DNA from: Psammoneis japonica
Taxonomy: Eukaryota
Length of the DNA: 64,000 nucleotides
NCBI GenBank assembly: GCA_008632985.1
Contig: QPGO01000002.1
Coordinates: 186,001-250,000, forward strand
Direction of reading: 5' to 3'
Positions 10,792 through 61,600 of this stretch are shown here, in pieces; the stretch's first letter is position 1; every line of letters starts with the position of its first letter. Made by a program: the position numbers and the translations under genes. The notes beneath the pieces were generated by a model, which saw only the letters and a program-made list of their open reading frames with translations, had not been told where the DNA came from and did no database searches.

Positions 10792-11057
10792 NNNNNNNNN
10801 NNNNNNNNNNNNNNNNNNNNNNNNNNNNNNNNNNNNNNNNNNNNNNNNNNNNNNNNNNNNNNNNNNNNNNNNNNNNNNNNNNNNNNNNNNNNNNNNNNNN
10901 NNNNNNNNNNNNNNNNNNNNNNNNNNNNNNNNNNNNNNNNNNNNNNNNNNNNNNNNNNNNNNNNNNNNNNNNNNNNNNNNNNNNNNNNNNNNNNNNNNNN
11001 NNNNNNNNNNNNNNNNNNNNNNNNNNNNNNNNNNNNNNNNNNNNNNNNNNNNNNNNN
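10792..11057. other. Assembly gap (N run)
   Basis: Continuous Ns. Confidence 1.
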
Positions 11058-18733: not shown

Positions 18734-19337
18734 GGTGACAATACTTGCTCTATCGATCACAACAACAGAGAAAGTGAGACGATTTTGTTCTGATCAGCGT
18801 GGATCGAACAGGAGAATCCGTGTTCGTTTGACGTCCGTTCTATTTTAAAAAACATATGTGCATGAATATAGTTAATTTCCTGTGTCTAAACCATGCTCAT
18901 TGGCCACGATTGCTCTCAGTTTGCCGAAAATTGAGAATACTAATATTCACGAGCTTATACATATATTGAACTAAAAAACTACACTCTTCTGATACCTGGG
19001 ACTCAGTTCCTTCGATTTTGGTCGGATGAGTCAAAAGTCGGAGAGGTTGCGGCGATCTAATGATGATGTGGATGAGGAGCCCCGACTTCAATCTTCCAGA
19101 CAAGGGTTGATGGAGAACATGGCGACGAATTGTCTAAGCCAGTACTAGTCAACGAAACGAAAAAGACAGAATACCTTCTCCTCGCGTGTCAGCGTCCATG
19201 ACCAAAACGTCAGATCATCACGACTCGCTGTTAAAGGCTCACCGTGGTCCACCACCGCACAACGATCCGCGTCGTTGATAAAGCCGGAAACAGACCTTTT
19301 GGACAAGTGGCAATTCATATCTTCTTCTTCTTTCAGT

Positions 19338-25676: not shown

Positions 25677-25971
25677 TGTCTTTTCCGCTGTGTTGCCACG
25701 AATTATGAGAAGAATAGTGTCAGTCGGTTCGAATAGCGGAGAGGAAGGATGGTGTCAAAAAGTGACGCCTGGTGTCATTGCGGTTTTCGTTTTTGATATT
25801 TTTAGTCGTGGATGAAATGCCACCAAAGTCGACAGACAAACAAACACCGAAACTTGCCGCCGACGAAGAAAAAGTACGTCACCGCAAACAACCAACAACA
25901 TGCCATGAAGCGAACGGCAAAACAATCAGGTGTTGTTTAGTTCAACTCGCACTGCACAGTAGAAAAGTGTC

Positions 25972-30919: not shown

Positions 30920-31049
30920 ATGATTCATTCTCAGTATTCTGAATTTTCTGTGTAAGTTTGGTTCTACTTTTAAGTTTGTAGCGTTGGGATTGCTCGTCAC
31001 CCTCCATAAGAGGTGTAGTTCGTAGTCCCATTGCCCCATATTGTTTCAA

Positions 31050-31710
31050 AAGTATTTATCATAATGGTAACATGGCATATCATAGTAGTCGGCTTTGCTA
31101 CTCTGCACCGTTAGTCAAAAAAGCCTATAACTACGAATTGTCCGCGTCGGCGAGGAACCGGGCGGTGGTTTGCTGGCTCGAAACAGCCACACGACGTAGC
31201 CTGATGCAATGGGGGAAAGGAAGAATCAAACAGTCATATCTATCCGTGACTTTCTTACCAGAGTCTTTAAGATAATGGTTTGGTTCGTACCAGTTGATGG
31301 ATCATTCATGACCACAGCGCGACACTAGACAAAACAGTTTGAAAATAATTTTATAGTGTGAGGGCGGAAAATCAATGCTGGATGGTTGAGAGTGATAAAA
31401 AGCAACCCAATTCTCTTGCTTGGGGTGCAGCATGTCAGCAAATACTTGAAGGTATGCCCGCCTCTGCCCAACCCAAATCAAACAAGCCTGAAACCCAGAG
31501 AAAACTGCATCAGAACAAGCAAGCTGGTTTTGGCAAATGCTGTGCGGTCACATTGAAAGCATGAAAAGGCCACCCAATTCACTCATCTGGGTGGCACATC
31601 AACTGCTCAAGCTGTGCCACCTCCATTAAACCCAAATGCAATGAGGGCACTCACATCACTGAAAGAAACTTGCCAAATGCCCAAATGGTGGTCGCACACA
31701 AATGTTCAAT
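31050..31710. repeat. Diverged direct duplicate of 39060-39705
   Basis: Shared blocks GCCTGATGCAATGGGG, GATGGATCATTCATGACCA, AACCCAATTCTCTT, GTCACATTGAAA, CAAATGTTC. Confidence 0.85.
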
Positions 31711-34180
31711 GAGCACAGTCCACAAGGGAGGGGGGCGGCAGAATGTTTTGTGGCTCTGTCTCAGGGAGCCAACCCTTGCTTGCCTTGCAAAGCTTCCAGT
31801 GACATTCACCATTCAATCATGTCAGAAAGAGTGCAGAATTTGATGGCTGCACCCCTGAGGAAGGCCACACAATATTCAAAAAAGCACTCTGACAAGACAG
31901 GCGAAGCACTCCATGATGCTCTTGCAGAGGACATCTGCACCATGAAGGGTGCAACCGCCAAGGACAAAGTGGCAGCACCAATGCCAGCAAAGTCAGCTTT
32001 TCATGAAAAAATGCATGGCAATGGACATGCATGATGGGCACAACTGACAGTTCTTGAAGAGCACAACAAAAACTTGGCTCAAAAGGAGCCAGGCCAGTGC
32101 AAGAGCCTGCAATGTCGGAAATGTCGCAAATTGTCATGGAAGTGTGCACTCACTGCCAAAGAACATTGTGGACATTGCAAGCAACTCCAGAGTCCATGAG
32201 GGGCATTGGATCTGCTCATGAGCTGCTCAACATGCAGAGGACAGTGGCACACCTGACACTCTTTTGGGGAATTTGGTGCTTGCAACATGTCAAGCATCTG
32301 GGTTCTGTTGCATTTAATGGTTGCTGGCTTGTCTCTGTTTCATGCCTGTGTTGAGCAGGTTGCACGAACAACAAGGGCGGTCATGAGAATGGACCCAGCA
32401 AGTCACGCCTGGTGCGCACACATTGTTGTCGGAGAGCAACCAAGTTTGGTGACCTCATGTGTCTTGGTGGCAGGGGGGCAATGTCAAAATGGGCTCTTGT
32501 CAGCTTGCAAAGTCAATTGCTTGCAAAAGGAGGGCACTGAAGATTCATTGCATGGCAATGCAAAATTGCATTTGAGAGATGACACATGGTTCTCATGACA
32601 AAATCCACTGACTGGCAAGCAACCTCCAATGTTGAGAGCAGATGACACTCTTCCAGATCTGTTGAATGATTGTGCATCCACAACAGACTTGAAAAGGCTG
32701 TCAACCAAGGAGGCAAAGGCTCATGACATCAGTCTTTTGCATGACAAAGCAAAGCACAAGAGCCCATCTGCTGAAAGAGAGAGACAATCCATGGCGTGCA
32801 ACAATGACAGTGTGGCAAATTGTGTGCAAGCAACACAAGTGGCTCTAGAGCCAACACCCTCATCATCAACCATTGGCCCAGTCAGAATGGCATCTGACAT
32901 TTGACACACACCAAGAGCACAGCATCTCCCAAAGAGCACAGGGCAGATGTCATTGCCATCAAAGCAATTTTTTCCCATTCTTTGGTTTCAACCCTTTCAA
33001 ATTGCTTCATCCAAAGGGTGGCGCCAACAGAGTCGAGGGGAAAAAGATGCCAATTGGACCTGCATCATGTCTTGATCATTTTGAGAACAGCAGTCACCCC
33101 GGTGCTCTTGTCCATTCTTGTGAACAGCCCAAGGAGGAGGAGATGGCAAAAAACGGATTTGGAAAAAGTCAATTGCGCCAAATGCACAAATTGCCAAATG
33201 ATGGGAATCGAACCAGCACGGAGCACCTGGAGCTGGAACAGGCCTGCAATGGACAGCCCAAGGAGGTGATGTCATGGCAGCTGGAGTCCATGCAAGCAAA
33301 ACAGCCTGACAATTGTGGCCAAGGGAGCATGAGGGCAGAAAACTCAGATGAGGTCCCACAAAGAAATGGACGTTGCCCATTGTCAGAAGCAGGGGATTCA
33401 TGTGCAATTGTCAAAAAAACAAAATGACCACATGAGCAATCTGCAACCACCAGCGATGCCCAGCCAAAAAGAAAGCCAGGATGCATTGTTGTCACAAACA
33501 GCACTGCAACAACAACACAAATTGCAATGGCTTGTGTGAAGCATGTGGTGCATCTGATGCACTCTGGTGCAGGACAGTCTGCCTGCATTTTGTGGATCAC
33601 TTGCCAGTGCTTCCTGGCAATCCAAGTGCCAACCATTTAAAAACTCATGTGGAAAAAAGCAGTGGGTTCATTGGGAGACTGCTGATCATCTTGGGTTTTG
33701 AATGGTCAGGTGCTGGACTGATCACCTTGCACAACCTTGACTGCGTTGCAATCAGCACAAAATGGAGCACATGAAGCCAGCAACTCTTGATGTGATGGCA
33801 CCAACATCTGATGGAACGACAGCAATGGAAAAGGTGGCAGTTGACCCCTTGTTGGCTCCTGCAACTCTTGGTGCTTTGAGTTTCAATGCACTGACAAAGG
33901 GCACTCACATGTCCAGCAGAAATGGTGCAGAGCGCGAAAAGCTTTGTTGATGCTGCAATCCCAGATTTCTCTTGTAAAGGAGCAGCTTCTGGAATCATGC
34001 AACTGGCTAAAAAGTTCAAAGCTCAGTGTGTGGGGATGAGACGAGCGCATCCAAGCCACCCAAAATCGATTTGCTCAATTTGAGCCCAATTGAAGTCAAA
34101 TGATGGACTGGATTTGGAAGACTTAAAGTGCCTGTTGTGCTGCAGCATCATTTGTTGTGAGGGCAACTTTGACGAGATGG
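31380..34180. mobile_element. TpA/CpG-depleted degenerate block
   Basis: Same composition as 1-7810; Tyr-poor spurious ORFs. Confidence 0.5.
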
Positions 34181-37580: not shown

Positions 37581-37712
37581 CTTTGTTCTTGTTAAAAATC
37601 TAAAATTTTTTGGTGTGCGCATGAATCAGAATCTGATCGTCCTTTCACAGTTGCCGCACCTCTTGCCACAAAAACACAAACTTGCAACCTTCAAGCAGTC
37701 TCCGTCGCAAGC

Positions 37713-38661
37713 ATGAAAATCGCCGCCATACTTGTTCTCATTGCCTCCCTCGCTGTGGCGTCTGCGTCGAAACTTCGTTTCGGAAAGCCTGGTGGTGACG
37801 TGACCGACGAAGCCGAGAACCATGTGAGTCTTTTTGGCACCGTGCGCGACGAGGTCGAGAGGAAGTCATTTGCTGGTTTTTTGGCAGTGCTCTCAATTTC
37901 ATTTCGTCCCACTTTTCTTGTGTTCCCGCCAGGCATCTCATCATCGTGTTTTGCAAGCACACGGTGGCAGCAGTAGAAGCAAGGGCAAGGGCGGAAGCAG
38001 CATGATGGGCTATGGCGGCAGCACCAAGGGCAGCATGGGTGGCTATTACTACGGCAGCAAGGGCATGGGCTATGGCGGCAGCACCAAGGGCAGCATGGGT
38101 GGCTATTACTACGGCAGCAAGGGCATGGGCTATGGCGGCAGCACCAAGGGCAGCATGGGTGGCTATTACTACGGCAGCAAGGGCATGGGCTATGGCGGCT
38201 ATTACTACGGCAGCAAGGGCATGGGCTATGGCGGCAGCACCAAGGGCAGCATGGGTGGCTATTACTACGGCAGCAAGGGCATGGGCTATGGCGGCTATTA
38301 CTACGGCAGCAAGGGCATGGGCTATGGCGGCAGCACCAAGGGCAGCATGGGTGGCTATTACTACGGCAGCAAGGGCATGGGCTATGGCGGCTATTACTAC
38401 GGCAGCAAGGGCATGGGCTATGGCGGCAGCACCAAGGGCAGCATGGGTGGCTATTACTACGGCAGCAAGGGCATGGGCTATGGCGGCAGCAAGGGCATGG
38501 GCTATGGCGGCAGCACCAAGGGCAGCATGGGTGGCTATTACTACGGCTCCTACAAGGGCAAGGGCAGCAAGGGTGGCTATTACCACAGCTACTCCAAGTC
38601 CACCAAGGTAAATCGTGAACTAGATGCCGATAACTCTGTCGAGGAAGACCACGAGTGGTAG
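37713..38661 (+). CDS. Secreted Gly/Tyr/Ser/Lys/Met-repeat protein, cingulin/silaffin-like biosilica protein (279 aa spliced)
   Basis: Signal peptide MKIAAILVLIASLAVASA; phase-0 intron 37824-37932 (GTGAGT..CAG); RVL and REL (RXL) sites flank GYGGSTKGSMGGYYYGSKGM repeats; acidic tail. Confidence 0.85.
38005..38548 (+). repeat. Coding tandem repeat, 60-bp and 36-bp units
   Basis: Near-perfect GGCTATGGCGGCAGCACCAAGGGCAGCATGGGTGGCTATTACTACGGCAGCAAGGGCATG units. Confidence 0.95.
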
Positions 38662-39059
38662 TTGCTCCTCTTTTCAAGAGCGTCACACGCTCAACTGCGG
38701 CATTTGGTAGTGCTGAGGGTCGAGGGATGGTTTATATGTTTTTTAAATAGCAACCACTGGTTTGGCGATGGGAGGCTTGCCATAGAGGAATATCATGTTT
38801 GTATAATAATTGCATTTGCATCTTCCAGTTCTACTGTAGCTTATTGCTTTGCCTCTGCAAGTTTCCATGCTCGACATTGTCTACGAGGTAGCCATAACCA
38901 ACACAGAGACGTACGATGTGAATAAACGAAAGTATTTTTGCATGAAAGGCATGCATTTGCTTTGATGACACATTGTGTTTCTTGATGCGATCAAGCAGTG
39001 TTTGGTGCATAGAGTTTCACCAACACCCGATGCCTCGTGTCGTTTCAAAAGGGTAGTTG

Positions 39060-39705
39060 AAAGTAGTCATGATAATGGTAACAGATTATAACGCTCGAGT
39101 TTTTGCTTTGACGGTGAGTCAAAACAGTCTCTAACTGCGACTCCGTGACGGCGAAGAACGGGACTTTGGTTGGCTGGCTCGCAACAGCAACAGGACGCAG
39201 CCTGATGCAATGGGGAAGGAGGAATTTCTCACAGGAGAGTCTGAACGATGATGGCTTGGGTCGCACAAGCAGATGGATCATTCATGACCATAGCGCGACA
39301 CTCTAGAGAAATCAGGTCGAAAAATGCAGCAAGCGGGCGGAAAATATATACTAGACGCTTGAGAGTGGCAAAACGTAACCCAATTCTCTTACTTGGGTGT
39401 ATTTCAGCAAGCGCTTGAAGCATGCCCACATCTGCCAAACCCAAATCCGTCGAGAGTACTCGCATTCGTGCCGTGAAATATGCATGAAACCGAGAGAAAA
39501 AATCACAAGGATAGAGGGCTGGTTGACATAAGTGCTGTAGTCACATTGAAAACATTAAAAGCCCATCCAATTCACTTATCTGGGTACCACAGAAAATATT
39601 AAAGCCATGCCTCCTCCATCAAACCCTAATGCAAAGAGGGTACCCCCATCTCCGAAGAGAACTCGTTATTCGTCCAAACGGTGGTCGTGCGCAAATGTTC
39701 CAGCT
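39060..39705. repeat. Unmutated paralogue of 31050-31710 (possibly a decayed minus-strand coding segment)
   Basis: See 31050-31710; retains TpA and CpG. Confidence 0.8.
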
Positions 39706-44719: not shown

Positions 44720-45671
44720 CTAGAATCCATCTCCAACGACATATGGATACTTATTGTAGAGTTTCTGATTCTTGAGTGCCCCCAAGGTGAATCCAGCGAG
44801 ATCAACATACGTAACAGGAATTGGACCTGGTTGCTGCAATAATAGAACGAGAAGCGAACATGATTGTCAGTGAACAAACTAGATATACCACAAGTTTGAC
44901 ACGCCAAGTTCAATTTGGAAGACTACCGTACTATATGCAGAGTTCTCTGGCATACTGTACAACAACATTTGCACAAATGACAGTCGTACGTACCGACTTG
45001 GACGCAAAAAGCTGCTTCTTGGATGGTCCTTCCCTACAGAGACCAGGTCGAGTCACGACAAAATTGAAACGTTTGTCCTTTTCGCGCTTCTTTGTTACAT
45101 ACTTTATCACTTCATTGTTATCTTTGACCTTGAGGTTTGGGCCCATGAATACTTGCGAAGCTCTGTTCGTGACGTTGCTCAACATCGGAAGGATTCCACG
45201 TCCATCTATCGACAAAGATGTGGCCTTTAGGAGGGAAAAGATGAACAGGAGGTATTAGAAACGTAAGCATTTTTTTTTAACAAAAACCATACAGTAGCGG
45301 CACACCGATGCTCGTCTCACCTGATACAAAAACAAATAAGGATGGTATTCTCTCATGATTGGATAAAGCAGCTTCACAAACTCAGCCATGAATCCCTCCT
45401 TATACTCTTTTTTCTTTAGAGTGTCACTCGCCATACAAACAACATAATGTGCATCGCAAATAACTTCGTCTATCGCCTCCTCGTCCTTGTAGTCGCCTTC
45501 AATAACAACGAGTTTATCATTCTCGACCTGAATCTCATTGGCTTTGGCGACGAGTACTCTTACAGTGTAACCTGCATCCAGAGCTAGTTTTAAAAACTCC
45601 TTTCCAGTTGGGCTCGTTGCGCCAAACAAGCCGATCATTTCTTCTCCGCTGTCAGAGTCCAGCATTGTCAT
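44720..45671 (-). CDS. NAD(P)-binding Rossmann protein (flavin reductase/BLVRB-like)
   Basis: IGLFGATSPTG, VIEGDY, VVTRPG, VTYVDLA; introns 45320-45225 and 44993-44834; one G-run frameshift in the last exon. Confidence 0.85.
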
Positions 45672-45839
45672 CGTCACGCGTCAAGCTGGGAGGTGTGTTG
45701 TGTTGGCGATGTCAGAAAAAAATGTGGACAAGACCAACGGTCACTTCGCACCTTAAAGAAGCTGACGTCGACGGGACATTCTGGGTCGCGCACAATGTCA
45801 TTGTTCTACGAGACTCATCTCCGACTCCGAGCTTCGATT

Positions 45840-47400
45840 GATTTCCATGTCATTGGCGATGTCAACCCATGCCGCTCACTCGGTGTTTGCCATTCAGCTT
45901 TTAGCAGAAGTGCATTCTCAAACAGCAGCTTTCATAAGCTCCATAAGCTCTGTGGCATGGGGTGACAAACAAACGGCTTCCACGAGGCACTCATCACCAA
46001 CACTTCCCTCCACAGCATGGTGCAGGTGGCTTTGAGGGTGCAAGCACTGGCGAAATGCCGGGCTCCAATGAAGATGACTGTGCCAACACCATCCAGTCCT
46101 TTCTTTAAAAAAAAGCTGCTGTGCTCATGCAACGCAAGTGGAAATCGATCCAGCCATGTGAGCGAGCAAGATGCAAAAGAAAACAAAACAGAGCAAGTGC
46201 GAGAGTGCCTTTTTTAAACACCGGCGCAAAGCCATGTTGGCCAGCAGAAATGTGGAGGAAGAGTTACAAGACACAAAGGGTCAAGCCTGTCCTCACAGAA
46301 TGAGCAGGTGCTGCATGTGCAATCAAGAAAATTCATGCACCAGGCAAATGTTGCTGATTGCCATTTTGGCGCCACCTCAATCGCTTCCTTTTTGGCAATC
46401 ACAAGCCAACATAAATGCCGCAGCTGGTTGTGGCTTTGTGATGGGGCATTGGGTGCTTTCAGCCAATCTGGATGAATCCTGATTCGCCCATCTCTGTGTC
46501 TTCAGGCTGCACTTCTTTTTGAACCGTGCCTGTTTGACAACAATTTTGTCAAGGCAAAGGCAGGCATGATGCAGAGTGTCTGCCAAGAGCTCATGGTCTT
46601 TGAGGCCAATTTCACATTGAGTGCATTGGCAGCAAACTGAGTCAGCACAGAGTTGAGATTCTTTGTCAACTCATTCAACTGTTTTTTTCCAAATCAGAAC
46701 CTGCTCCACTTTCAAACTTCTTGGTGCACTTGTTGCAACCAAGACAAGGGATTTGAATTTGTGCTGGAGATTCATGGTTCATGCTAACAGTGCTGCTGCA
46801 ATCAAGTCTTCTTCCCCTGAAAAAGGGAGCACAGATTGTTGGTGAAACGTCAACAATGTGCTTTGCCACCAGCCTTGCAAGAAAGTGGCTTTCAAAGCCC
46901 CAGGGGAAGGCAGTCATCAATTTGTGGCAGATTTGGACAACCACTGGCATCCTGGAAAGTTTCTCATCATGCTTGCATTGACAAACTTTTGTGTCGCTGC
47001 TTGCCAAATGGCAAATCCTCTGAGCTTTTGTGGTGGGTGCAATGAGTGGCCACCTGAGCATTTGTTTCATTGTTGTTCCAGTGGCAACACAACTGGGCAC
47101 AATGCTTCCAGTGCTGCAGGCATGCCTTCACATGTGGAGCTGAGGGTGTGCAAGGCTGCAAGGCTGTGCATTCCTGCTTGCCAATGGCACTGATGCAGTC
47201 ATGCCTTACAAACTTGACCACATCAACTGCAGATGCCAACTTGAGCATCAATTTTGCCAACAATGGTCTCTTGCCAATTTTCCCAGCACTTGGGATTGAA
47301 TGCCTTTTTCATGCTTTTTGCTGCTGTGCCTCTGCTGCCATTTTTGGCAGCAGCCCAAAGCCCCAAAGAGGACAAAGGGGGGAGATGAAGTCCCCAAGCC
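45840..47400. mobile_element. TpA/CpG-depleted degenerate block
   Basis: Abrupt compositional switch near 45840. Confidence 0.45.
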
Positions 47401-47410
47401 CTCTCCAGAT

Positions 47411-48780
47411 GCTCTCCTGTTGAGCTCCATTTTGCCATCGTCATCAAGCAAAGATGGAAACTGTCACAAATTCCTTTGAAGATTGAGAACAAAATGCACA
47501 ACAATGTGATCAAGAAGTTTCACCACAGAAGCAATCACAGGCCACAGGCATGGCTGGTCGCATCAATGCCAGCATGCGCACACCCTGAGAAACATTCCAA
47601 GAAGGAACAATGAAGTGCAAAATGACATCGAGTGTCGACTTCCTGTTGTTCAGCATTCTGAGCCTTTTTGGTCACATCAGAGCATCCACTCTTGCAGCAA
47701 GGACCAATGACAGCTGATGATCAGACAGTGACCCATCACTTGTGCAACCGCCTGTGCTCACCTGAGAACTGCCACTGGCTGCTCAGGATGCAATGACCCT
47801 CATTCCTTGTTTTCTCCTCTCTTGATGAAGTCCCAAAGCCCTGGGTCATGCTCCAGGAATCCAACAAAAATGCAAGCAATGCTCTCCTGTTGAGCTCCAT
47901 TTTGTCGTCATCATCAAGCGAAGACTGCAACTGTCGCGGATTCCTTTGAAGATTGAGAATGAAATGAACGACAATGCAAGCAAGAAGTTTCACCGCAGAA
48001 GCAATCAGGCCACGGGTGCGGCCAGTTGCATTGGTGCCAGCATGCGTGCCCCGAGAAACATTCCAAGAAGGAACAATGAAGTGCAACATACAATGTCGAG
48101 CATCGACTTCCCATTGTTCAGCATTCTGAGCCTTTGCGGTCACATCAGAGCATCCACTCTTGCAGCAAGGACCAACAACAGCTGACAATCAGACAGCAAC
48201 CCAACACTTGTGCATCTGCCTGCGCTAAAACCTGAGAACTGCCACTGGCTGCTCAGGATGTGATGATGCTCATTCCTTGTTTACTTCCGTCTTGACGAAG
48301 TCCCAAAGTCCTCCAGAGGTCATGCTCCATGAATCCAACAAAAATGCAAGCAATGCTCTCCTGTTGAGCTCCTTGTCGTCTTCGTCATCGAGCAAAGACG
48401 GCAACTGTCATGGTGTCCTTTGAAGATTGAGAACAAAATACAAGAGGATGCAATGAAGGAGTTTCATCAAAGAAGCAATCAGGCCACGGGTGTGGCTGGT
48501 CGCATCAATGCCAGCATGCGTGCCCCGAGAAATGTGCCAAGACAGAAAAACAATGCACAGCGTCACATCAAGTGTCAACGTCCCATTGTTCACATTGTTT
48601 GGAGCCTTTGTGGGCATCTCAGAATGTCCCCTCTCACAGCAAGGGCCAACGACAGACAACAATCAGACAGTGCTGTAGCCTGAAACTTGCACGTCTGCCA
48701 GGCTCACATGAGAACTGCCACTGACTGCTCAGGATGCAATGATCCTCATTCCTTGTTTTCTCCTGTCCTGATGAATTGCG
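47411..48780. repeat. Tandem repeat, about 470 bp x3, overlapping the 3' end of the LRR gene
   Basis: GCTCTCCTGTTGAGCTCC at 47411, 47881 and 48355; CTCATTCCTTGTTT near 47799, 48269 and 48745. Confidence 0.9.
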
Positions 48781-50088
48781 GATTGTTCATCAAGAACCAA
48801 AACATGAAGTTCTCATTGCTGCGCGGACCTGCCAAGACGTGCGGCCAAAGAGCTGCAGGTGCGTCGTGGCGATGCAGCAAGTGTCTTCCTGCTTTGTTCA
48901 TTTGAATGCAGCAATCTACTTCAGCTTGCATCTTGTCTTGCGGCTTCTTGCGCATCGGCACAACAGCACGTTCAATGGAGTGCAACGCATCTCCAATGTC
49001 CTTGGGTGTGGTTGTGAGCGACGAACAACCATCCAAGTCTAGATGACAAAGACTCGGAAGCTCAAGAATTTCTTTTAGAGTTGCAGTCAACTGCTCGCAC
49101 CAAAGTTCCAAGTGCTCCAACTTTGTGAGCAATCCCAGCTTGGGAGGCAGCTCAACCACTTCGAAACACGAGGTGACATCTGACGCAGTGAGATTGACCA
49201 GATTGCTCACGGCGTTTTGCAAGAATTCATCCAAGCCGTGGACGCGGTTTGGAAGTGTGAGTTCTTGCAGCTGTGTCAGCTTCCCAATCTCAATCGGCAG
49301 TTTTGTGAGTTTCTCGCAATGTCTGAGATTGAGTTCCTCAAGTTGCTGTAACTTTCCAATTTCAGGGGACAAGTGAGTGAGGGAGTTGCACTCACGCAAA
49401 TGCAGCTCCTCCACCAAGTTTGTCAATTGCCCCCATTGATCTGGAACCTGTCCAAGAATTTTGCACTCTGGAGTGTGGTGTCTCAGTTGCTGCAGCTCTC
49501 AGATCCCCACTGTTGGCAACTCTTCGAGGCTTTCGCATTCGAAAATGATCAGGAGTCTGAGTTGTGTCAACCACCCAATTCCCGCGGGCAAACTTTTGAA
49601 AGCCCTGCAAGTTTGCAAGTTTAGCTCCTTCAACTTTGTCAAACTGCACATTTCGTCGGGCAGTGTAACAAGGGTGTTCGTGTCACATAAATTGAGTGCT
49701 TTAAGTTGCTGCAGCTGCCCGATTTCAGGTGGGACCCACTCAAGCCCGATGCAGCAGTCCAAGGTCAAAACGACAAGTCGATGCAACAAGCCAATTTTGC
49801 GCGGAAGCTCAGCCACAATGCCCGAGCTCAAACTCAGTTTTCTTGCATTGACACACTTTTTGTGACCTTGTTCATGATCACCGTAAGAGACACAATCGCG
49901 GTTTTCTGACAACGACCGCTTTGACTCTCCCGTGGCTTGTGTCAACGCAGCGAATGTTCGGTCGGAAAGACGATCGTCGTCGTCGTCCACATTGTTGTTG
50001 TCTTGTTCCCTTGGAAACGCATTGTGAGAGCAAGGCACCCACTTAAAGCGAGCGTGTTGATAAAAGAAAAGCGACGATTTCAAATGCC
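48746..50088 (-). pseudogene. Leucine-rich-repeat protein, frameshifted and hypermutated
   Basis: LPxEIGxLxxLxxLxLxxC repeats in two frames; C-terminal MNKAGRHLL..LWPHVL motif; no Tyr in the last 226 aa. Confidence 0.85.
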
Positions 50089-50432
50089 ATTCACCGACCG
50101 CTGTGGGCCATCGTCGACAGCGATGAAATCACTGTTGTACCGGCTACTCTCTAGCAGTAGAGTATTTGGAACATAAAAGAAGCTGACGTCGATTGGACCT
50201 TCTGGGTCTCGTAACATCTTACGTACATGTACAGTACTGTATCCTACTGTACTGTACCGTACTGTACAAGACGCCTCATCGCCGACTCGTTGGACCGATT
50301 CGATTCGATTCGTTTGATTTGACATTCGACTGCGCCGCAACTGCTGCTGAATACTGAATACAGTAGCTAGAGTCTAGCCCTACTCCTCAATGCTGTAGAG
50401 TGCGATCTAATAAAAGTTAATATAGCTCTCCT

Positions 50433-51852
50433 CTAGTCATGTCTCCTTTTATCTCTCGAACGCTTCTTGATTCCCTTTTTATTGTCAATTACGACATAGT
50501 CGTCCATGTTTCGCCCATCACCTCCCCCAGCTCGTTGGTCCATGTGCTGACGACAATTGAATTTCGTAGACAGCCAGCCTTGTTCATCCTTTTCACTGTC
50601 GCTATCGTCCAAGACTTGACCATGATAAGTCGGCAGGTCTCGCTGCTCTTTGCCGTTTTCTTCTTGTAGACGTTGTCGCTTTGCCATTCTCGATGCCAAC
50701 GAGTGGTCCTGAATGTCGTCTTTAGACGCTTTCTTTTTTTGCGAGCTTTGCGTTCGTACCTTGCCTTGAAAAGCCAACAGCTTGGCCATGGTTTCCTCTT
50801 CACGCTGCTTCTTGCTCTTTGATGAAGCCTGTTGATATTTTAATCGTCTCGCTTCCACTGCGCTTGGTACGGACGGCGACTTTTTCTTTTCCTTTTTTTG
50901 ACGAGACTGGGCGTCAGACTGGATGTTGCCCTCGATCACTTTGCTCTCGATAGCCTTGCTCTCGACTTGTGTCTCTATTTTCTTATACACTGGACCAAGG
51001 TTCGGGGGTTCTTTCTCATTTTGCGCGACATCATGTTTTTCATCAACCTCTTTTTCTTTTGCCAGACTAGTGTTTCTCTTTTTCTTTTTCCTCCCATCCT
51101 CGTCTCCAACAATATCGTGACTGCTTTTCATACCCGCTCCATCGACTTGATCTAGCTCGTCGTCCCCACCAAAGCTCAATACATTCACGTCCCGTTTGCC
51201 TTTGCGTTGCTTCTTTTTTTTCTTTGGCGCAGCTTCGTTTGCTTTGGTTGCTTTCCAAGGCAAAAAGTTTCCGGGATACAGTGTGGACGGTTCTTCCAAC
51301 TCATATGAAACAACTTTGGTTGTCTTGATTCGTGGTGCATCGTCCATATCGAGTGGCTGTCCCTGGTCATTAACATTGGTGACACTACCAATGCGCAACG
51401 CGTTAAAGACGGTGGGACCACTGGCTACTGTACCAAAGACCAAGTGCTTTTCATTCAAATAGGGTGCTTCATCTAGCGTAATAAAGAACTGTGGTTCGAG
51501 CAAGACGTCGCTCTCGTTGAATGGTAACGCCATGGCGACTTGTCCTCGATGATTGAACTTGATGCGAGAATGCCGTTCCAAACTGCGTCTCTCCAAATAC
51601 TGTTCCGCTAGCGTTGAATTCTGTTGTTTCCATGCAACCCAATCAGTTTCACGAAGACCCGTTTGAATCAGAAAATTATTGATAATGCGGTGAAATACCA
51701 AGCCATCGTAGTAACCGTCCAATGCCAATTGCAAAAGAGTCGAACCGTTGCCGGCATTCACGACACCACAAGTGAATCTCAATAGGACCATGGGTCGTTT
51801 CAAGCAAGACTCGTCCTGACGTGGAAGGTTCTGTGGCATAAACTTGACTCAT
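50433..51852 (-). CDS. CWC27: Spliceosome-associated cyclophilin CWC27
   Basis: MSQVYATEPSTSGRVLLETTHGPIEIHLW, LDGYYDGLVFHRII, HSRIKFNHRGQVAMA, QFFITLD, NVLSFG, REEETMAKLLAF; frameshift near 51745. Confidence 0.9.
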
Positions 51853-54619: not shown

Positions 54620-57600
54620 CACTCGGTCACCAGTCTGTCACTCACTGTTCTGCTTTGACCCAGCCCATGACGTGCTCACCAGCCAGCACTGGCATTCTCT
54701 CATTGCTTGGCTTGGAGTCCAGGCTCCAGCAGCAAGCTCCTGGACCAGTCCTGCTCGAATCCAAGGGGTGCAATTTGGGGCACAAGAACTTTGGGGTGCA
54801 AAAACAGGCATCCTGCCTGAGACCAACACGCAATTTTCCTGCATTGAGTGCGCCAAAACTGCAACTCATTTGTTGCAAGCCTTTGACACACAAAGGTTGG
54901 TGCAATGATGATGATGATGTGTTTGCCAGAGCAATGCAGCCGATGGTGAGGTTGTCACCAAGGATCCTGACAACCATGGCAATTGGATTTGCTGCATCAA
55001 TTGTGCCAGCTCGCATCCTCTTTTGTGCGCCAATGATCTTCTCCAAGGCTTTGATCTGGGCTCCAACAGCCCTGCCTTTTTTTGGTGTGAGCACTCGCAT
55101 CCCAGAAAAGGAGTCCAGAAATTGACAACTGGCACTTTGAGTTGCTGGTCACCATTCCTTTGTCTTCTTCAAAGACTTGCTTGCAAATGAGTTGGCCAAA
55201 GCCACACAATTTGACAAGTTCTTTTTGGGTGCAGATGTCACAGCTCCAGATGACAAACCTGCCATGTTGCACACACCTGCGGCACACCCCTTGTTTGTGA
55301 AATTGAAAGAAGAAGGTGATGATGGCTTTGTGCTGCATCTGTGGGTGCAAGCATGGCATGGACACTTTGATCTCAGTGGCACAAAGCAGTCGCCTGATCA
55401 AGTGTGGCTTGATGCACACATCTTCTGCCCTCCTTTCAATGCTTCCTGTGGATGCCACGCTTGCTTCATGGCAATGTCGTCCAAGAAAGAAAATCATCAA
55501 ATCATGGAAACAATTTTAAGAGCTTCCATTTCCTTCTCCCCTGACATCTTCTGCAAAGCCTTGCTTCAAGCACGGTGTTGACTGCCACTTGCTGCTGTGC
55601 TCATTCCATCTGGCTGCACCACATGATGAGTGCACCCCAGCCAGTTCTCCAGGTCTTGTCCATTGCTGTGCAACTGTCCAACAATGCAGAGGAAGCAGCA
55701 AGAGCAATTCATCACACCCATGGCAATGCATCTGGGGAAAATCTGGGTGTCACAGCCTTCCTGTCCTTGTTTTTGTGAGACAGCAACTGGCGCATTGGCA
55801 AGAGCTTCTCCACTCCATTTTCCCCTGACATGCCATTTGTTGCTGTGCCAATTTTGTCTGGCCGCACAACACAATGAGGGTGTCCCAGCCAGTTCTCCAG
55901 ATCTTGTCATTGAGAACCAATCAGCGGAATGTCACCGGCAAATGGGCTGGCAGCCCCACTTGTCCGCTGCTGCACAACCATCTGATGGCACAGAGGCAAT
56001 GGCAAGAACAATGCACCACACCCACAGCAATGCATCTGGGAAGAAAACCCAATTGCTGCCACCTTCCTGCTCTTGTTCTTGTGAGACAGCATGAGAGTGG
56101 CAATGCATGCAACAGCAAAGTTTGACAACAACAATGTCAGTGTGGTGTTGTTCTTTCTTGTGTTCTGGAAACAATCAATTGCCGCACACAAATTTCAGAA
56201 ACAGGCCACATTTTTGTGTTTAAAAAATTTGTTGAATGCAGAATTGCTGTCTTGTCAAAATTTTGGATTCCTGTGCTGCTGACTCACAACATTGTGCGAC
56301 GCACACTGCACAAACATTGTGACAACACGCCATCATCACAAACACCTGCCATTGCACGACAAAGCAGTTGTTGTGTCCATCTGGTGTTGTTTTCAGCACG
56401 GATGATTTTGTGGATGAATGATGCACGCAATGAGGCAGAGCAGCAAATGTGCTCTCTGTCCACAGCAGTGCAAAAAACGCACAGCACGTGAGTGCCATGC
56501 TCATGCTGCTGGCAGTGCATTGTGCTGCTGCTTGCCAGACTCAACCATCTCAGCCATCTGAAATGTGGGGCCAAGCACCAAGAAAAATGGTGAGCAAGCA
56601 CAGCAGCTCTGTGGCAGAGTGCACCATTGATTGGACATGTCTCATGCTGTTGCTTGTCATGCAAAGGCCAAGGAGGTGGTCAGCCCTGGGTGCAAATGAA
56701 AAAGTGACAACCATTGGGCACCATTGTTGTGCTGCCACTTGCCAGACTCAACCACCCCCATGGTGAGATCACATTGTCCTGTGGCTTGCTGTGCAATTGA
56801 TTGGACATGCCTCACACTGTTGATTGTTGTGCAAAGGCCAATGAGTTGTTGGCTGCCACTGGCACAAATGCAAGGTGAGAGCCTTGCGAGCACTCCAGTT
56901 TGGCATTGTTGACTTGCTCTGATGCTGCTGGGCATCATTGTGTTGCTTCTTGGCAGACTCAACCAGCCAACCCCTCCAAGCTGTTGCTGGATCAAGTGCC
57001 AAGGAAAATGGCTGGAGTGCACAATGCAGCCATGCAAGTTGTGCGCTGTTTGTTGGAAACACTTCTCACATTGTTTGTTCATTGTGGCAAAGAAAAAGAC
57101 AGTGAAAAAACATTGCAACAAAACTGCAACCCTTGCTGCAGCCAATGAAGCAAGTGCTTGCCACTCCCAGGGAGATTTGCACATTTGTGTTTTGGTGCAC
57201 CTTGTGTCATCTTGTGCTTGTGCACTGACCGGTTGTTTGTTTCTGCACACACAGTGCAGGTGGTGCAAGGCAGGAAGCTCACTTGATCCACGCCTTGGTC
57301 CACCAAGATGACGGCAAACATTTCACTCAAGCTTGCCTGGACACAAACCCTGTCTTCCCAACACAGTGCTGTGGCCTCAAGTGTGTTGTTGCACTTTTGG
57401 ATCAAGCAGCTGCAAGGTGCTGGAAAAGAAAAAGCCAGTGTGTGGGTTGGCAAAAATGCACTGAGTGCAATTGCCAGTTTTTGAACTGTGTCACGAGTGC
57501 TGTCAAAAGGCTGATTTGTCATCTGGAGTTAATTGAAGCACAGCTTCTCATGGAAATGAAAGTTGTTCAGAGCACTGTGGCTTCTCATTGTTCAGAGTTG

Positions 57601-60600
57601 TGCTCCAATTAAAAATGGACGTGCTGCATTGGGCACCCAAACATTGTTCAGAGTTGTGCTCTGATTGAATGGACACAATTGCAGCAGTGCTCTGAATGTC
57701 AGCACAGTGCTCCAATTTGCAAATTCATGCTCTGAGTGCAATGCTTTGAGCACATCTCCAGAGCTTTGAATGAAAAAATTTGCTCTGATTGTGCTCTGTG
57801 CAGGCATTGTCATCTCAGTTGACTGTGTCATTTGCCCCAAATGTCCCACACTGTGACAGGACAAATTCAAGCAAAGCTTTGCTCAGAACAAAACATTTCA
57901 ACCATGAATGAAGTGATTCTCACTTGCAGCGATGATGCTGAGTTGTGTTTGTCTTGCTTTCTTGTGACTGTGCTGATGCAGTGGGGGGGGGGGGGGGGGG
58001 CTGTCTTTGTTTTTCAGAAAAGCAGCAGCTTTGGTGTTGCAGGGTGGGCTTTTTCTTGTTGTTCTGTGAGCTTCAGCAATTGTGAAGCCACAGCATTGTT
58101 TGCTTGTGCCCACATGAGATGGGTTGGATGACAGCTCTGAAACACTGAGCAGCTGCAAAGTGGCACCTCACAGACAGCAGAGCAATGACAAGGTTGTTTT
58201 TTGCTTCTTCTTTTTGAAGATTTTGACATGGCCCCATTGGTTTCTTGCCACTGGGGCTGGACCAAGTGCACTGGAAATGACCTGACAGTGCCAACAAAGT
58301 TGAGAAGGGGGGACTTGCATGTTGTTTGCACTGTCAATTGTCAGCTTTCAAACTCAGGCAAAGTTTTGTAGTGTGCTTCATGCTGCAGGTGCTGCAGTGC
58401 ACAACCAAGTTGCTTGGAAGTGCAAGCAAATTTTTGAAGCTGATGTGAGTGGGTGTGGAGGGGGCACTGGCAGCTGTCTGTGGCAACTTGCTTTTCAATG
58501 CTGTGGCAACTCTCTCTCTTCCATTGTCTGCAAGACAAAGATTGCACTGCAACCCATTCCACATTTTCCCCAGATTCACCATGGCATTCAAGTGAGGTTG
58601 TTTGCAGTGTTTGTTTTTGAGTGCAAAAATGTTTGCACTCACACCCAGCTGCCAACAAAGTGAGAACATCAGGCACCATGACAGAAGCATGGATGACAGC
58701 AATCTGGCCAACATGTCTCCAAAATGCAGCAGACCATCCTCAAACATCTGATGTGTGTGTGACCTTTGACATGCAACAAACACAAAACAAATGAGAGTTG
58801 ACAGACAAGCCACCTCCATCATGGACTTGCTGCTTGATGACTTTGCTGGGGTGAAGCACAGTGAAATCAAGGAAAGCCATGCAAAGTCATGCAAAGTCAC
58901 AAGCTGTTTGGCCAAAGAACTTGACCAAAAAAAGCAGCAATGACCTCCCATTAAATTTGTCTCAAGAATGGTGTGGGGCAGGTGGATGTTCAACAACTTT
59001 GAGTGCAGACAGCTGCAAATGCACCACAAACTTGCACAGAGTCCCGCCTGGTGCTGGAATGCACCGACTGCAGATTGCCTTGCAACAGAAGCAAATGAAG
59101 GTGCAAAGCTGGCAAAAGCTTTTCACAGCTTCTTCCATGGCAAAGAGAGCCATCTCCAAGTGCATCACACAGCAGATTTTGGAGCCTTTCAATGCCACCA
59201 TTTCTCCATCTGTTGGGTCAGCTGGTGTTTTTTTTTGGACTTTGAAAATGTGTGCTGAGAGTTTCAGTTTGGTGCCCAACAACAGCAGCCTTGCAGAGCA
59301 TCCATGACAGGGCAGCTCAATGTGGGCAGATTTGTGGAGAAAAAACTGTGCTGTGACTCAAGACAGCCTGTTGACTTGTCTGTTGTGTGATCACATCTGG
59401 GTCCAAGCAGATTCGTGCTGGTTCATTGTTCAAGTCAGAGTTGAAAGGAGACTGTCAACAAGAAGCAAATTGTGGATGGGTTTTGGTTGGCACAGGAATG
59501 TGCAGCCAGAGGAGAGAAAGCATGTGTGGTTCTGATCACATCTGACAGCAGTGATTGTGGTCATGCTGTGACATGTCTGTGGGACACTGGCATGCCCATC
59601 ATGATTTGTTGCCCTGGTGTGGCTGCAAAAGCCCCAGCTGACAATGCCAATTTCATCATGTCTTGAAACTTTGATGTTCTTCTTGGTGGCCACCAGGGAG
59701 CCTTGATCAGGAGGATGACAGCATTCAGCGCAATCAGCTGAGCAAAGGTGCGCAGCTCAGCTGCCAAAAAGAAAGGTCATGACAAGCCCAAAGTGGTTTT
59801 AAAGCAGTCGGACCTTCAAGCTCATGGGAAGTTTCCCTTGTTTGGCAGAGTTGTGCTGAACACTCAGTGCTGCAGCATGGCAGAAAGAATTGATGGTCTG
59901 GTCCAGCTGGGCTGACAAGGTGAACATGGCACACAATTTTTGTGAGAAGGTCACAGCAAAAGATCACAAGAGCCACCAGGATGTCTGCACCTTGGCAACA
60001 CAGAGAAACTTCACAGAGTGGGGAGAACACAAACTCTCAATGCTGGACAAGCCTGTGATCAAAGTTGAGAATCAGAAGGATGGAGCCACAGCTTTGTCAT
60101 GCAAATCTTGTGCACAATTGACTTGCTGCCAAAAAAGGGGCTGGATGACTGTGTTGCCTGCAAGGTTCTAGAACAAGCTGATGATGCATCAGGAAACAGG
60201 CAACACTTCTGTTGCTTCCTCTTCATTGGGCAGAAATGGCATTGGGGACAATCACCACAATGGCAAATCATTTGATTGTGGCCAATTGCAGCACAAGGTC
60301 TCACTTCAAATGGTCTGGGCCACCAATCTCAGCACACATCAGCATGTGGGGTCATGGCTTTGAGTTTGTCTTCCCCAAGAACCCATGTGATGCCAACAGG
60401 AGTGCTTTGCCATTTTGTTTTCACCCAGCTTGGGACACTCCCAAGCACTTGTCTGTTCATCAAACCCTTGGGGCTGTCAGATGGCTGAAGAGGGAAAAAC
60501 CAATGTCATTTGCCAAAAGGCACTCTCTCATCTCAAAAGGAACAAGCCAAAACTTTCCAAGAAATGCTGACAAGTGGCATTTGATGGGCTGCAACAACCC

Positions 60601-61600
60601 CGTTGGCAGCTGCTCAGCCAAACATTGTGCACCCACTCACCCAATCAAATGAAACCTGCTGGCAGTGTGGCGGCTTTCCACACTCCAGAAATCAAAGCTT
60701 GCGAGCTGGCCAAAACAGCCTTGGCATCAGATCAAGAAAATGCAAAGACAAATGAAAGAAACCTGAGGAACTTGGAAAAGATTGACCTCTGGGCATCTCC
60801 AGGGTTCCTTTTGCATGACCTGCACATGACTCAAGCCTCTTTGCTGACCTTCAGCAATCACCTGCTCACGTTGGCATTGAAGGCAACAAAAACAAAAATG
60901 ATCTTACACAAATCTTTGTCATGAGCAAGTTCTGTTGTCAAATCAAATCACACAACCTGTCTTGCCAACAACTTTGAAAACATTCCTCAAACAATGAGAG
61001 CACATGTGGCAAATTGCCACAATCTCTGCTGATGACAGAGACCGTCATGATGGCTCTTGCTGCAGCAAGAGTGCAAAGTCAAGCTTCAAGCAGTGGCCTC
61101 TTCTCCCACAACCACCTGTCTGCCTCTTTCAAGATAGAGACCAAATTGTCAAGACTTTTGTAAAAAATTGCCACGAAAAATGCTGTGTGTCATTTTGACA
61201 AACTGCCTCTGCTGCAGTGCTTGTGCGGATGCTGCGGCCCACATCTTGATGTCCTGTCCTGGCACTTTCCCTGTCTGCTTTCATCTTTGTCTTTCCATTG
61301 ACACTCTGAGAATTGATGGTTGCAGCAGTGCCACCCAACTCAGCAAATTTGACCTCTGGTGGATCCACCACACCACTCATTTTGACAAATGTCCAAGCAG
61401 CCAACAGTGTGTCAAATCCAATCTTGCCAAAGCCCTTGCTGCCTGCAAGAAAAAGAACAAGAAACCTGCAACAAATGGCAAATGGCTGGTTCTCTCAATC
61501 CACCAATCTTGGACATGGTGGAAACAGGCGAACTCACAAACAACAACTAGCCACACCTCATCTTCTCCATCAAAAAAGCAAGACCACAAACAACAAAGTG
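54620..61600. mobile_element. Large TpA/CpG-depleted degenerate block with internal duplications
   Basis: TG/CA-saturated; duplicated units at about 55580-55790 / 55830-56090 and 56490-57050. Confidence 0.55.

Follow-up and report, generated by a model that had tools for sequence, protein, structure and literature searches.

The 64,000-nucleotide stretch of DNA analysed here (the window; Psammoneis japonica, GCA_008632985.1, contig QPGO01000002.1, positions 186,001 to 250,000) carries a leucine-rich repeat (LRR) gene that has lost almost all of its tyrosine codons and most of its TA dinucleotides. How did a gene of host type come to look like this, and does the responsible process diversify such genes or destroy them? 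A first-pass annotation, made from the sequence alone, had suggested that a mutational process spreads into the gene from an adjacent repeat. We lean towards another reading, namely that the gene lies within a 4.4-kb domain under region-targeted TpA mutation and, as one copy among many in its family, is now dead or dying and not diversifying.

The gene is read from the minus strand, and its upstream part follows an inferred model.

48746-50041, minus strand: LRR gene body, putative exon 2, used for translation, Pfam scores and composition
48749-49012, minus strand: C-terminal module of 88 aa (P0241), containing the DCC, GRH, DAP and LWPH positions
49499-49501, minus strand: in-frame TGA, within the LRR unit ..LPTVGI*ELQQL..
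50042-50094, minus strand: putative intron of 53 nt (GT..AG), with normal TA density
50095-50217, minus strand: putative exon 1 of 41 codons, with 2 Tyr and the sole available ATG

Putative exon 2 is a single frame of 431 codons and a stop, in which about 12 LRR units are followed by the C-terminal module. The 226-aa open reading frame (ORF) described at first (48746-49426, minus strand) is the lower part of a 445-codon frame (48749-50083, minus strand) that is split by the TGA and has no in-frame ATG within its first 144 codons. This frame scores above the Pfam gathering thresholds for leucine-rich repeat proteins, with an LRR_14 match of 50.2 bits (cutoff 40) at 49502-50083 and an LRR_8 match of 33.2 bits (cutoff 27) at 48746-49426. 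A protein search with the full frame gave 334 matches at E<=1e-3; the best named matches come from a diatom (34-38% identity), and proteins of Bigelowiella natans are absent among the matches. At the DNA level, no second LRR copy was found within the window. As the LRR periodicity runs on across 49499-49501, the TGA is a nonsense codon; an intron reading fails, the only GT..AG piece available there being 21 nt long and its removal disrupting the LRR register. Most simply, this TGA would have arisen from CGA through a CpG process that accompanies the loss of TA.

The 226-aa ORF indeed lacks tyrosine, as does its 250-aa stop-to-stop frame, and the peptides that had been singled out (DCCIQMNKAGRHLL, LWPHVL and LTTTPKDIG) are all found in the translation with the codons cited for them (TGC after T and after C, CAC after A and after G, and ACA at the first and third Thr). 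Across exon 2, only one of 431 codons encodes Tyr (reference 2.92%, P=4e-5), and 9 TA are present at 48749-50041 where 42.3 are expected (Poisson P=6e-10), while CG is only mildly low (59 vs 78 expected, P=0.014); the expected TA count derives from eight genes of normal composition elsewhere in the window. TA-containing codons are reduced to 16.2 per 1000 from 59.1 (p=5e-5), and the codons that TA mutation would produce are raised to 281 per 1000 from 184 (p=4e-6); ACA, for example, accounts for 14 of the 26 Thr codons, compared with a 25% share in the reference genes. The depletion hits all codon positions, and only 2 TA span codon junctions where about 17 are expected. The TA arm of the process would be about 80% complete in the gene, with Tyr codons lost and ATA/GTA/CTA-type codons rewritten to ACA/ATG, GCA/GTG and CCA/CTG, and the CpG arm, the probable source of the in-frame TGA, would be about 25% complete.

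With its 1.3 kb the gene occupies the right end of a 4.4-kb block (45600-50040), and the following parts can be distinguished to the left of the gene.

45600-46135: zone of transition on the left side (TA 11.2 per kb and CG 50.4 per kb), which starts where an NmrA-like gene on the minus strand (45258-45680) has its 5' end
46136-47408: block core, TA 3.9 per kb, CG 9.4 per kb, with no recognisable coding sequence
47409-48775: tandem repeat, period 474, 2.9 copies, 81% matches; a local triplication whose right end overlaps the last ~10 codons of the gene

Six such blocks, together 24,356 bp, make up 38% of the window. Their observed/expected ratio (o/e) for TA is 0.03-0.07, as against 0.62 in the normal DNA of the window, TG and CA stand at 1.6-1.85, and CG is at 0.16 in the fully erased blocks. 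The base composition is nevertheless the same in blocks and normal DNA (A 0.262 vs 0.261), and the pooled gain of TG (+41.96 per 1000) is almost exactly that predicted from half of the TA and CG losses (42.05). The neighbouring bases are biased as well, Y_TG_Y outnumbering Y_CA_Y by 917 to 581 in the blocks (680/631 in normal DNA; p=7e-7); on the 3' side of the edited A a pyrimidine is favoured, in the order T>=C>G>A. The proposed flank logic, with TAY>TGY changes preferred, holds across the blocks, as does the asymmetry behind the claim that Cys arises after pyrimidines and His after purines; over the whole gene, that claim fails (Cys after 10 pyrimidines and 8 purines, His after 8 and 10; Fisher p=0.74).

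None of the 159 block ORFs (44 of at least 130 aa and 115 of 75-129 aa) matched Pfam at the curated cut-off, and at E<=1 the matches of the class-II segment 8379-10436 did not rise above chance. Elsewhere in the window, a PAS/LOV ORF (24894-25754) was noted, with no bZIP domain and no match to a solved structure annotated as an aureochrome.

Four comparisons (between tandem copies, within a dispersed pair of repeats, with paralogous contigs and between apparent alleles) show mutation and not native composition. Alignment of the three copies of the tandem repeat gives 120 variable columns, of which 63 fall in 40 dinucleotide sites that swap TG, CA, CG and TA (21 CA-vs-TG, 9 CA/CG, 7 CG/TG, 2 three-state and 1 TA/TG). 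Comparison of the dispersed repeats 31049-31707 / 39060-39700 shows that the portion within a block retains none of the 8 TA sites of the normal copy, 5 of them having become TG or CA, and has also lost 5 of its 6 CG sites. At 48860-61 the window has TG and four paralogous contigs have CA, giving GCA (Ala) in the window vs GTG (Val) in the paralogues; the corresponding homologue column has Val in 31 of 56 proteins and Ala in none. Finally, contigs from the same locus visibly differ from the window at three places, TA/TG at 49077 and TG/CG at 49082 and 46680; all three concern target dinucleotides, and they are the only hint as to de novo change. These contigs are Logan assemblies from the same run(s) as the window and offer no evidence independent of its original reads; three sequencing runs are listed, all of DNA and from one sample. 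TpA>TpG/CpA changes are present on both strands and are confined to discrete regions. The claim that a strand-symmetric process covers a host-type LRR gene and alters its residues is borne out, by the change of Val to Ala (GTA>GCA) and by the loss of Tyr.

The residue-by-residue reading of the C-terminus had relied on an expected motif, DYY..AGRYLL..LWPYVL, in which Tyr would have been replaced by Cys or His. The module is common to LRR_6 proteins bearing a precomputed PF27087, and the repeats upstream differ, being of the LRR_14/LRR_8 type in the window gene vs LRR_6 in these homologues. A phmmer search with the module gave 10 matches at E<=1e-3, 9 of them genuine (E 1e-5 to 1e-3), and a profile search gave 53, with PF27087 in 42 of the 53. 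The top phmmer match, P0242, is a repeat protein and spurious; it was left out, together with P0250, before the columns were counted in 56 homologues. The consensus is 'LN.aGR..L...vP.aLWP.vL....D.lfFFL..kP', alignment A1 has invariant columns N39, G42, R43, P52, L55, W56, F73 and P78, and the window protein joins this family by a significant tail match and by the presence of the invariant columns. The column counts contradict the expected motif: the LWP-x column contains R19 H18 L11 Y1 and the GR-x column R25 K11 M5 Y4 H2. By the refuting condition that the first-pass annotation had itself set, LWPH and GRH were misread as mutated Tyr and LWPH is native, since homologues with normal Tyr have His (18/56) and Arg/Lys (36/56) in these columns, and for GRH, which falls in the Arg/Lys column, CGC>CAC is likelier than a loss of Tyr. 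The two Cys columns hold H21 F11 Y10 R8 and L27 Y13 W6, with no Cys; derivation of Cys-Cys from Tyr-Tyr is plausible, and is the sole inference from the motif left standing. A reversion test on the module, in which TG/CA were turned back to TA/CG, improved the fit to the family in 11 of 43 non-synonymous cases, compared with 10 of 65 control transitions (p=0.22), no more than a trend. The possibility that the repeat truncated the C-terminus was rejected, because the loose ends of the paralogues and the homologues suggest that the ..PQFI(R/K).. tail is native. A search of the ESM Atlas with the module tail returned unrelated viral clusters only (scores <=0.82), alignment A1 proved too variable throughout to yield a query for metagenome loci, and a HOP protein scan of metagenomes matched 565 pattern stretches, with no relatives among them.

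According to the reading we favour, from about 50040 leftwards A would have been changed to G at TpA strand-symmetrically (a change of TA>TG that reads as TA>CA on the complementary strand), accompanied by a slower CpG>TpG/CpA decay. The domain would consist of silenced chromatin, probably cytosine-methylated, and the strata of CG loss (CG in core < tandem repeat < gene) would record the time each element has spent in it. The TA arm may be an enzymatic deamination of adenine in DNA, as proposed for B. natans, with a pyrimidine preferred 3' of the edited A. The in-frame TGA and the multi-copy family suggest that the gene is probably a pseudogene and not a diversifying gene, and radical residues in its conserved columns point the same way. 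Of the earlier suggestion that the process could "diversify or kill" LRR families, the killing thus fits and the diversification is unsupported. Since the gene is multi-copy and its paralogues are apparently mutated too, it may itself be a direct target of the process.

The closest known system comes from B. natans, where integrated viral DNA is hypermutated at TpA (Mettrop et al. 2026, bioRxiv 10.64898/2026.01.13.699255) and de novo TpA>TpG/CpA changes occur in mutation-accumulation lines at ~1000-fold background in defined regions. The two are alike in several ways: TpA alone is hit and becomes TpG on one strand and CpA on the other, the changes are restricted to defined regions, the signature left in the long term is TpA depletion with CpA+TpG enrichment in clusters of 1-kb windows, and some of the affected B. 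natans coding sequences bear host-like Pfams. The differences are that depletion in the window is near total (o/e 0.03, vs Rho 0.45 reported for their NCLDV region), that the window also loses CpG, a word absent from that preprint, that it shows the 3'-pyrimidine preference, and that the lineage is another one. Moreover, its targets carry no viral or transposon domain detectable in the block ORFs at the curated cut-off, where heavy mutation may mask their origin, and its single recognisable victim is a host-type LRR gene. A literature search on TpA hypermutation in diatoms, in stramenopiles and in RIP-like processes found this preprint only; its supplements may list host-type, possibly LRR, coding sequences as TpA-depleted.

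The strongest competitor is that the gene was mutated for being repeated, by a homology-triggered, RIP-like targeting that halts where homology halts. The depth of Logan contigs is ~608 over 48689-48905 vs ~59 for single-copy DNA, which is about 10-fold over the C-terminal module, and 94-182 over the remaining gene. Paralogous pieces align up to ~50087, near the TA boundary, and have CA or TG at 50044 and 50049 where the window retains TA or CG. The tandem array would have formed before it was mutated, the 40 swap sites being close to the ~45 TA+CG sites expected per unit, and, in the dispersed pair, TA<->TG/CA differences run in both directions outside the blocks as well, with only 2 TA sites shared out of 13 in one copy and 14 in the other. 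The depletion edge (~50040) lies near the end of the paralogue alignment (~50087-50207), and so fits such targeting as well as it fits a chromatin domain. Against this, parts of the same block are single-copy in depth (45000-46300 and 46953-47169, at >=80% likeness), the block sequences do not match one another within the window, and the high depth of the module may merely mirror a conserved domain in a large family. The main hypermutated region of B. natans is single-copy (Mettrop et al. 2026). We regard homology-triggered targeting as unlikely, if worth serious attention.

The original proposal, in which a gradient leaks from the repeat at 47411-48780 into a functional single-copy host gene and diversifies LRR families without creating stops, appears distinctly improbable. 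It is supported by CG, which climbs stepwise from the core (9.4 per kb) through the tandem repeat (24.9) to the gene (46.6; 45.6, near normal, for 48746-50041), by the genetic code, under which TA>TG/CA cannot make an in-frame stop, and by an LRR frame that is open save for one codon. However, that codon is a TGA, so that the absence of new stops is true of the TA arm alone; the gene is multi-copy; and DNA free of TA keeps its frames open by default. TA is flat and evenly low over exon 2 (1, 2, 1, 0, 4 and 1 per successive 200 bp; 7.0 per kb) and then jumps from 7.1 to 38-57 per kb across 50040, reaching 56.9 per kb in putative exon 1. Beyond this edge, which coincides with the 3' end of the putative intron, CG is normal as well. 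The recovery noted near 50050 is thus real, both dinucleotides being normal just past 50040; it is a step and not a gradient of TA, only CG being stratified, and a spread from the repeat is not borne out. Each of five further block edges examined is sharp within 250 bp, and in the gene, as in the segment 8379-10436, the loss of CG trails that of TA.

ADARs favour a 5' U and a 3' G next to the edited adenosine, and exon 2 might be imagined as a retrocopy of double-stranded RNA edited by such an enzyme and then reverse-transcribed, the depletion edge lying at the putative junction of intron and exon 2. The 5' U preference is also stated in the B. natans preprint (Mettrop et al. 2026). This origin is very improbable and already disfavoured: besides the gene, the block holds 3 kb of sequence outside genes, and its tandem array was mutated in place once the duplication had occurred; the paralogous contigs extend into the putative intron, the 3' preference in the window is for a pyrimidine and not G, and de novo events in B. 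natans fall in resident DNA (Mettrop et al. 2026). Just as improbable is the absence of any mutational process, for although TA is under-represented throughout the window, even in its normal DNA, and LRR proteins, being rich in Leu, can contain little Tyr, a Tyr content of <0.7% occurs in just 4 of the 56 module homologues (their Y/F columns in the module hold 23 and 16 Tyr), cross-codon TA is depleted too, the pattern continues into non-coding flanks, and, against an assembly or sequencing artefact, Logan record 7 reproduces the sequence with 5 differences over 48875-51500, a comparison within the same run(s) and thus not an independent one.

Fungal RIP changes C to T, mainly at CpA, thereby making TpA, raising the AT content and creating many stop codons, and genes beside repeats can be mutated or killed by it. 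The window resembles it in having dinucleotide-specific transitions in repeats and adjacent DNA, with tandem and dispersed copies diverging at the target sites; it differs in that TpA is destroyed, composition is unchanged and stops are possible from the CpG arm only, so that the signature is not that of RIP. The decay of 5-methylcytosine at CpG is similar in its strand-symmetric CG>TG/CA changes and in the CG/TG/CA polymorphism among repeat copies, but accounts for just half of the TG/CA gain in the window. ADAR/ADAT-type adenosine deaminases and the WA-motif mutagenesis of polymerase eta change A to G with T or U immediately 5'; the deaminases share A>G after a 5' T with the window and differ in the base preferred on the 3' side. 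AA is not depleted in the blocks (o/e 1.27 vs 1.14), which argues against the polymerase-eta signature.

We may tentatively speculate, as a rather unlikely possibility, that a GC-neutral, RIP-like genome defence operates in this diatom-like alga, converting TpA and CpG, the two self-complementary dinucleotides of pyrimidine and purine, to TpG/CpA within sharply bounded domains by one dual A/C deaminase system or by an adenine deaminase at methylated chromatin, and engulfing multi-copy LRR (immune-type) genes. If so, TpA hypermutation would extend beyond one chlorarachniophyte and may represent a wider protist genome-defence system. Because the loss of TA is coupled to that of CpG, base composition stays constant, and scans based on GC content or RIP indices would miss the process. 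Host genes would be damaged by a route in which codons for Tyr, Ile, Val and Leu are changed with no stop arising, until the CpG arm adds a nonsense codon, and hypermutation of this kind would drive the birth-and-death turnover of multi-copy LRR families. TGA is also the sole stop left in TA-free DNA, which therefore contains many long spurious ORFs (44 of at least 130 aa in 24 kb, none matching Pfam at the curated cut-off), and some Tyr-free, Cys/His-rich "proteins" in the databases may be translations of erased DNA, with a corresponding risk of mis-annotation by gene callers.

The LRR gene on the minus strand is, on translation, one 445-codon frame (50083-48749) broken once, by a TGA at 49499-49501. 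The 226-aa ORF (48746-49426) singled out by the first-pass annotation exists, but it is the lower part of this frame. Pfam recognises LRR repeats in both halves of the frame (LRR_14, 50.2 bits, cutoff 40; LRR_8, 33.2 bits, cutoff 27), and the read-through protein, searched with the stop entered as X, has 334 generic LRR matches, the top one 39% identical across 51% of the query. The 88 C-terminal residues (P0241) are non-LRR sequence and matched 10 proteins at E<=1e-3 in a phmmer search of 1.84 billion representatives. Two of the matches were rejected: P0242 is a spurious hit to a repeat protein, and P0250 is similar through LRR-like sequence only. A profile built from the alignment of homologous tails (A1) retrieved 53 proteins, 42 of which carry the precomputed domain PF27087, mostly downstream of LRR_6 repeats. 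The Pfam LRR matches and the PF27087-type module of the homologues identify the gene as a host-type family member, in which LRR repeats are followed by a C-terminal module that is conserved. Codons 1-144 of the long frame lack an ATG, and a plausible model places before it a putative ATG exon (50217-50095, 41 codons) and a 53-nt GT..AG intron (50094-50042).

The putative exon 2 (48749-50041) was compared with eight normal genes of the window (4011 codons; TA 32.7/kb, CG 60.6/kb, Tyr 2.92%). It contains 9 TA against 42.3 expected (P=6e-10), 59 CG against 78 expected (P=0.014), and a single Tyr codon in 431 against the 2.92% of the reference (P=4e-5). Only 2 TA span codon boundaries, where about 17 are expected; codons containing TA number 16 per 1000 against 59 per 1000 (p=5e-5), and TG/CA “product” codons 281 per 1000 against 184 per 1000 (p=4e-6). 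ACA accounts for 14 of the 26 Thr codons, against 25% in the reference. The first-pass annotation was right that the 226-aa ORF lacks Tyr, and the motif strings and codons that it named are all present in the sequence. The depletion is real and highly non-random; it acts on the dinucleotide, whatever the codon position, and does not reflect an amino-acid preference.

The gene forms the right end of one of six blocks, totalling 24,356 bp or 38% of the 64-kb window, in which TA, and mostly also CG, is replaced by TG/CA.

Erased blocks, by dinucleotide composition
1-7684, erased block
8379-10436, erased block
27980-29976, erased block
31555-33991, erased block
45600-50040, erased block ending in the LRR gene
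54712-61524, erased block

In fully erased blocks, the observed/expected ratio is 0.03 for TA, 0.16 for CG and 1.85 for CA/TG, and base composition is like that of normal DNA (A 0.261 vs 0.262). The TG/CA gain in blocks is +41.96 per 1000, against 42.05 for half of the summed loss of TA and CG. The blocks occupy the intergenic space separating normal genes. Their ORFs are long because TAA and TAG cannot occur there, and none of 159 stop-to-stop ORFs reached the curated Pfam cut-off (0/44 at >=130 aa; 0/115 at 75-129 aa). One Tyr-free ORF in a fully erased block (58855-59304, plus strand) matches RTP801_C below threshold (E 9.3e-6, 26.1 bits, cutoff 27) and may be what remains of another host gene that this process destroyed. 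The first block also contains a degenerate tandem array (2568-3586; ~190-bp spacing, ~72% identity).

The first-pass annotation had read the region as a gradient of mutation spreading from the repeat at 47411-48780. TA counts per 200 bp across exon 2 are 1, 2, 1, 0, 4 and 1, and past 50000 they are 8 and 18; TA recovers in a step near 50040, where the putative intron ends. The supposed source is a locally triplicated sequence, and the last ~10 codons of the LRR gene itself are part of it. At five other block edges examined, TA and CG change together, sharply within 250 bp. Here CG climbs in strata that match sequence elements.

CG per kb across the right part of block 45600-50040
46136-47408, core: 9.4
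47409-48775, tandem repeat: 24.9
48776-50040, LRR gene: 46.6
beyond the block: 64-76

Such strata would arise if TA loss is fast and saturating, CpG decay is slow, and the elements have been exposed for unequal times. Two TA-erased segments retain most of their CG, the LRR gene and 8379-10436. The latter has almost no TA (5 in 2058 bp), near-normal CG (73) and no recognisable Pfam domain, and it too may have been engulfed recently; immediately to the right of it the assembly has a gap (N run 10792-11057).

Four independent comparisons show that the erasure is mutation. First, the three copies of the 474-bp tandem repeat (47409-48775) vary at 120 ungapped columns, and 63 of these belong to 40 dinucleotide sites at which the copies alternate between TG, CA, CG and TA (CA against TG 21, CA/CG 9, CG/TG 7, three-state 2, TA/TG 1), as would be expected of ancestral TA or CG resolving independently after triplication. 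Second, a dispersed repeat pair (31049-31707 / 39060-39700; 68% identity) straddles a block edge. At the 8 TA sites of the normal copy, the in-block copy has CA (3), TG (2) or other (3), and at the 6 CG sites it has TG (4), CA (1) or CG (1). In the stretch beyond the block edge, the copies differ reciprocally in TA (only 2 shared, from 13 in one copy and 14 in the other) while keeping 10 of 19 CG sites, and in repeats generally TA sites appear to be hypermutable. Third, among source-run contigs aligned to the window at >=80% likeness, paralogous contigs pile up on the LRR gene to a depth of ~608 over 48689-48905, against ~59 for single copy. Four paralogous contigs have CA at 48860-61 where the window has TG, giving GCA (Ala) in the window and GTG (Val) in the paralogue. 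The homologue column has Val in 31 of 56 and Ala in none, and most parsimoniously an ancestral GTA would have been resolved in two directions. Fourth, the same-locus (Logan) contigs show three visible differences, TA/TG at 49077 and TG/CG at 49082 and 46680, in a small, selected sample that counts only the best-supported ones. These may be allelic, and as all fall at TA/TG or TG/CG sites, they hint that both processes are recent.

Cys had been said to arise after pyrimidines and His after purines. Gene-wide, the preceding base shows no association (p=0.74), native residues diluting any signal, but the logic holds across the blocks. Between pyrimidines TG exceeds CA (917 and 581; normal DNA 680 vs 631; p=7e-7), and between purines CA exceeds TG (964 and 595; normal DNA 741 vs 654; p=2e-6). 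The TAs left in blocks are mostly in TTAA, with ATAN, NTAT and GTAC nearly gone. This fits a preference of the edited A for a 3' pyrimidine, the counts behind which include inseparable CpG-derived events. A polymerase-eta WA signature is unsupported because AA is intact in the blocks, with no depletion. ADAR-type enzymes prefer a 3' G, a preference not seen in the blocks.

Three Tyr losses proposed from motifs were judged by the residues of 56 homologues (P0242 and P0250 removed first), and two of them fail by the first-pass annotation's own standard for refutation. The column of the His after GR is an Arg/Lys column (R25 K11 M5 Y4 Q3 S3 H2), for which CGC>CAC, through CpG loss, is the better one-step source, and the His of LWPH is native, being shared by 18 of the 56 (R19 H18 L11 Y1). 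For DCC, neither the first column (H21 F11 Y10 R8 L3) nor the second (L27 Y13 W6 F3) contains Cys; an origin of both from Tyr (TAC>TGC) is plausible, Tyr being, besides Arg, the sole one-step source among the common residues. Undoing TG/CA in the tail brings 11 of 43 non-synonymous cases closer to the family, compared with 10 of 65 control transitions, a trend only (p=0.22); the strongest reversions are Ala to Val, Met to Ile, Cys to Tyr (twice) and His to Arg.

The process had also been expected to create no stop codons. The in-frame TGA falls within a regular LRR unit and would derive most simply from CGA>TGA, which under the genetic code is the only in-frame stop route open to a TA or CpG process. 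Conserved positions carry radical residues: Ala for Val, Cys-Cys, Thr (ACA) at a Leu/Ile/Val position before Pro, and the Pro (CCA) of LRHHTPEC. The gene is probably a pseudogene, and adaptive diversification has no support. The mutational process of the earlier interpretation stands, whereas two motif calls, the absence of stops and the gradient do not. The locus holds one copy of a host LRR gene that exists in multiple copies; a domain of TpA (+CpG) to TpG/CpA hypermutation has either engulfed this copy or targeted it directly, and it is probably dead. We lean towards a chromatin domain as the basis of targeting; guidance by sequence homology seems less likely.

Fungal RIP is analogous in logic and opposite in chemistry, because RIP creates TpA. 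Our search of the literature on TpA hypermutation (diatoms, stramenopiles, RIP-like processes) found nothing beyond the 2026 Bigelowiella natans preprint of Mettrop et al., the closest known case. According to that preprint, two integrated viral regions acquired 231 mutations in mutation-accumulation lines, of which 230 were A>G or T>C, all of these on TpA at ~1000x the background rate; clusters elsewhere in the genome are TpA-poor and CpA+TpG-rich, and an ADAT2-like DNA deaminase is proposed (bioRxiv 10.64898/2026.01.13.699255). The words CpG, diatom, leucine and tetranucleotide do not occur in the preprint text. The window is not B. natans DNA: its conserved CWC27 has no match above 50% identity (the only named match, a diatom, is at 38%) and its genes have long intron-free ORFs.

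Several other features of the window were observed. An ORF at 24894-25754 (minus strand) encodes a LOV-like PAS domain (PAS_9, E 2.3e-10) with no bZIP domain detected in it; of the solved structures, bacterial LOV histidine kinases match it best. The region 37694-38731 is a TA-rich tandem repeat (TA observed/expected 1.27; self-matches of 76-88% identity between 37997 and 38589), with long ORFs of extreme Tyr or Cys content in several frames, a composition opposite to that of the erased blocks. A 232-bp direct repeat at 18050-18389 (108-bp offset, 98% identity) sits in an ORF of 376 aa whose composition is normal (17666-18793, minus strand).
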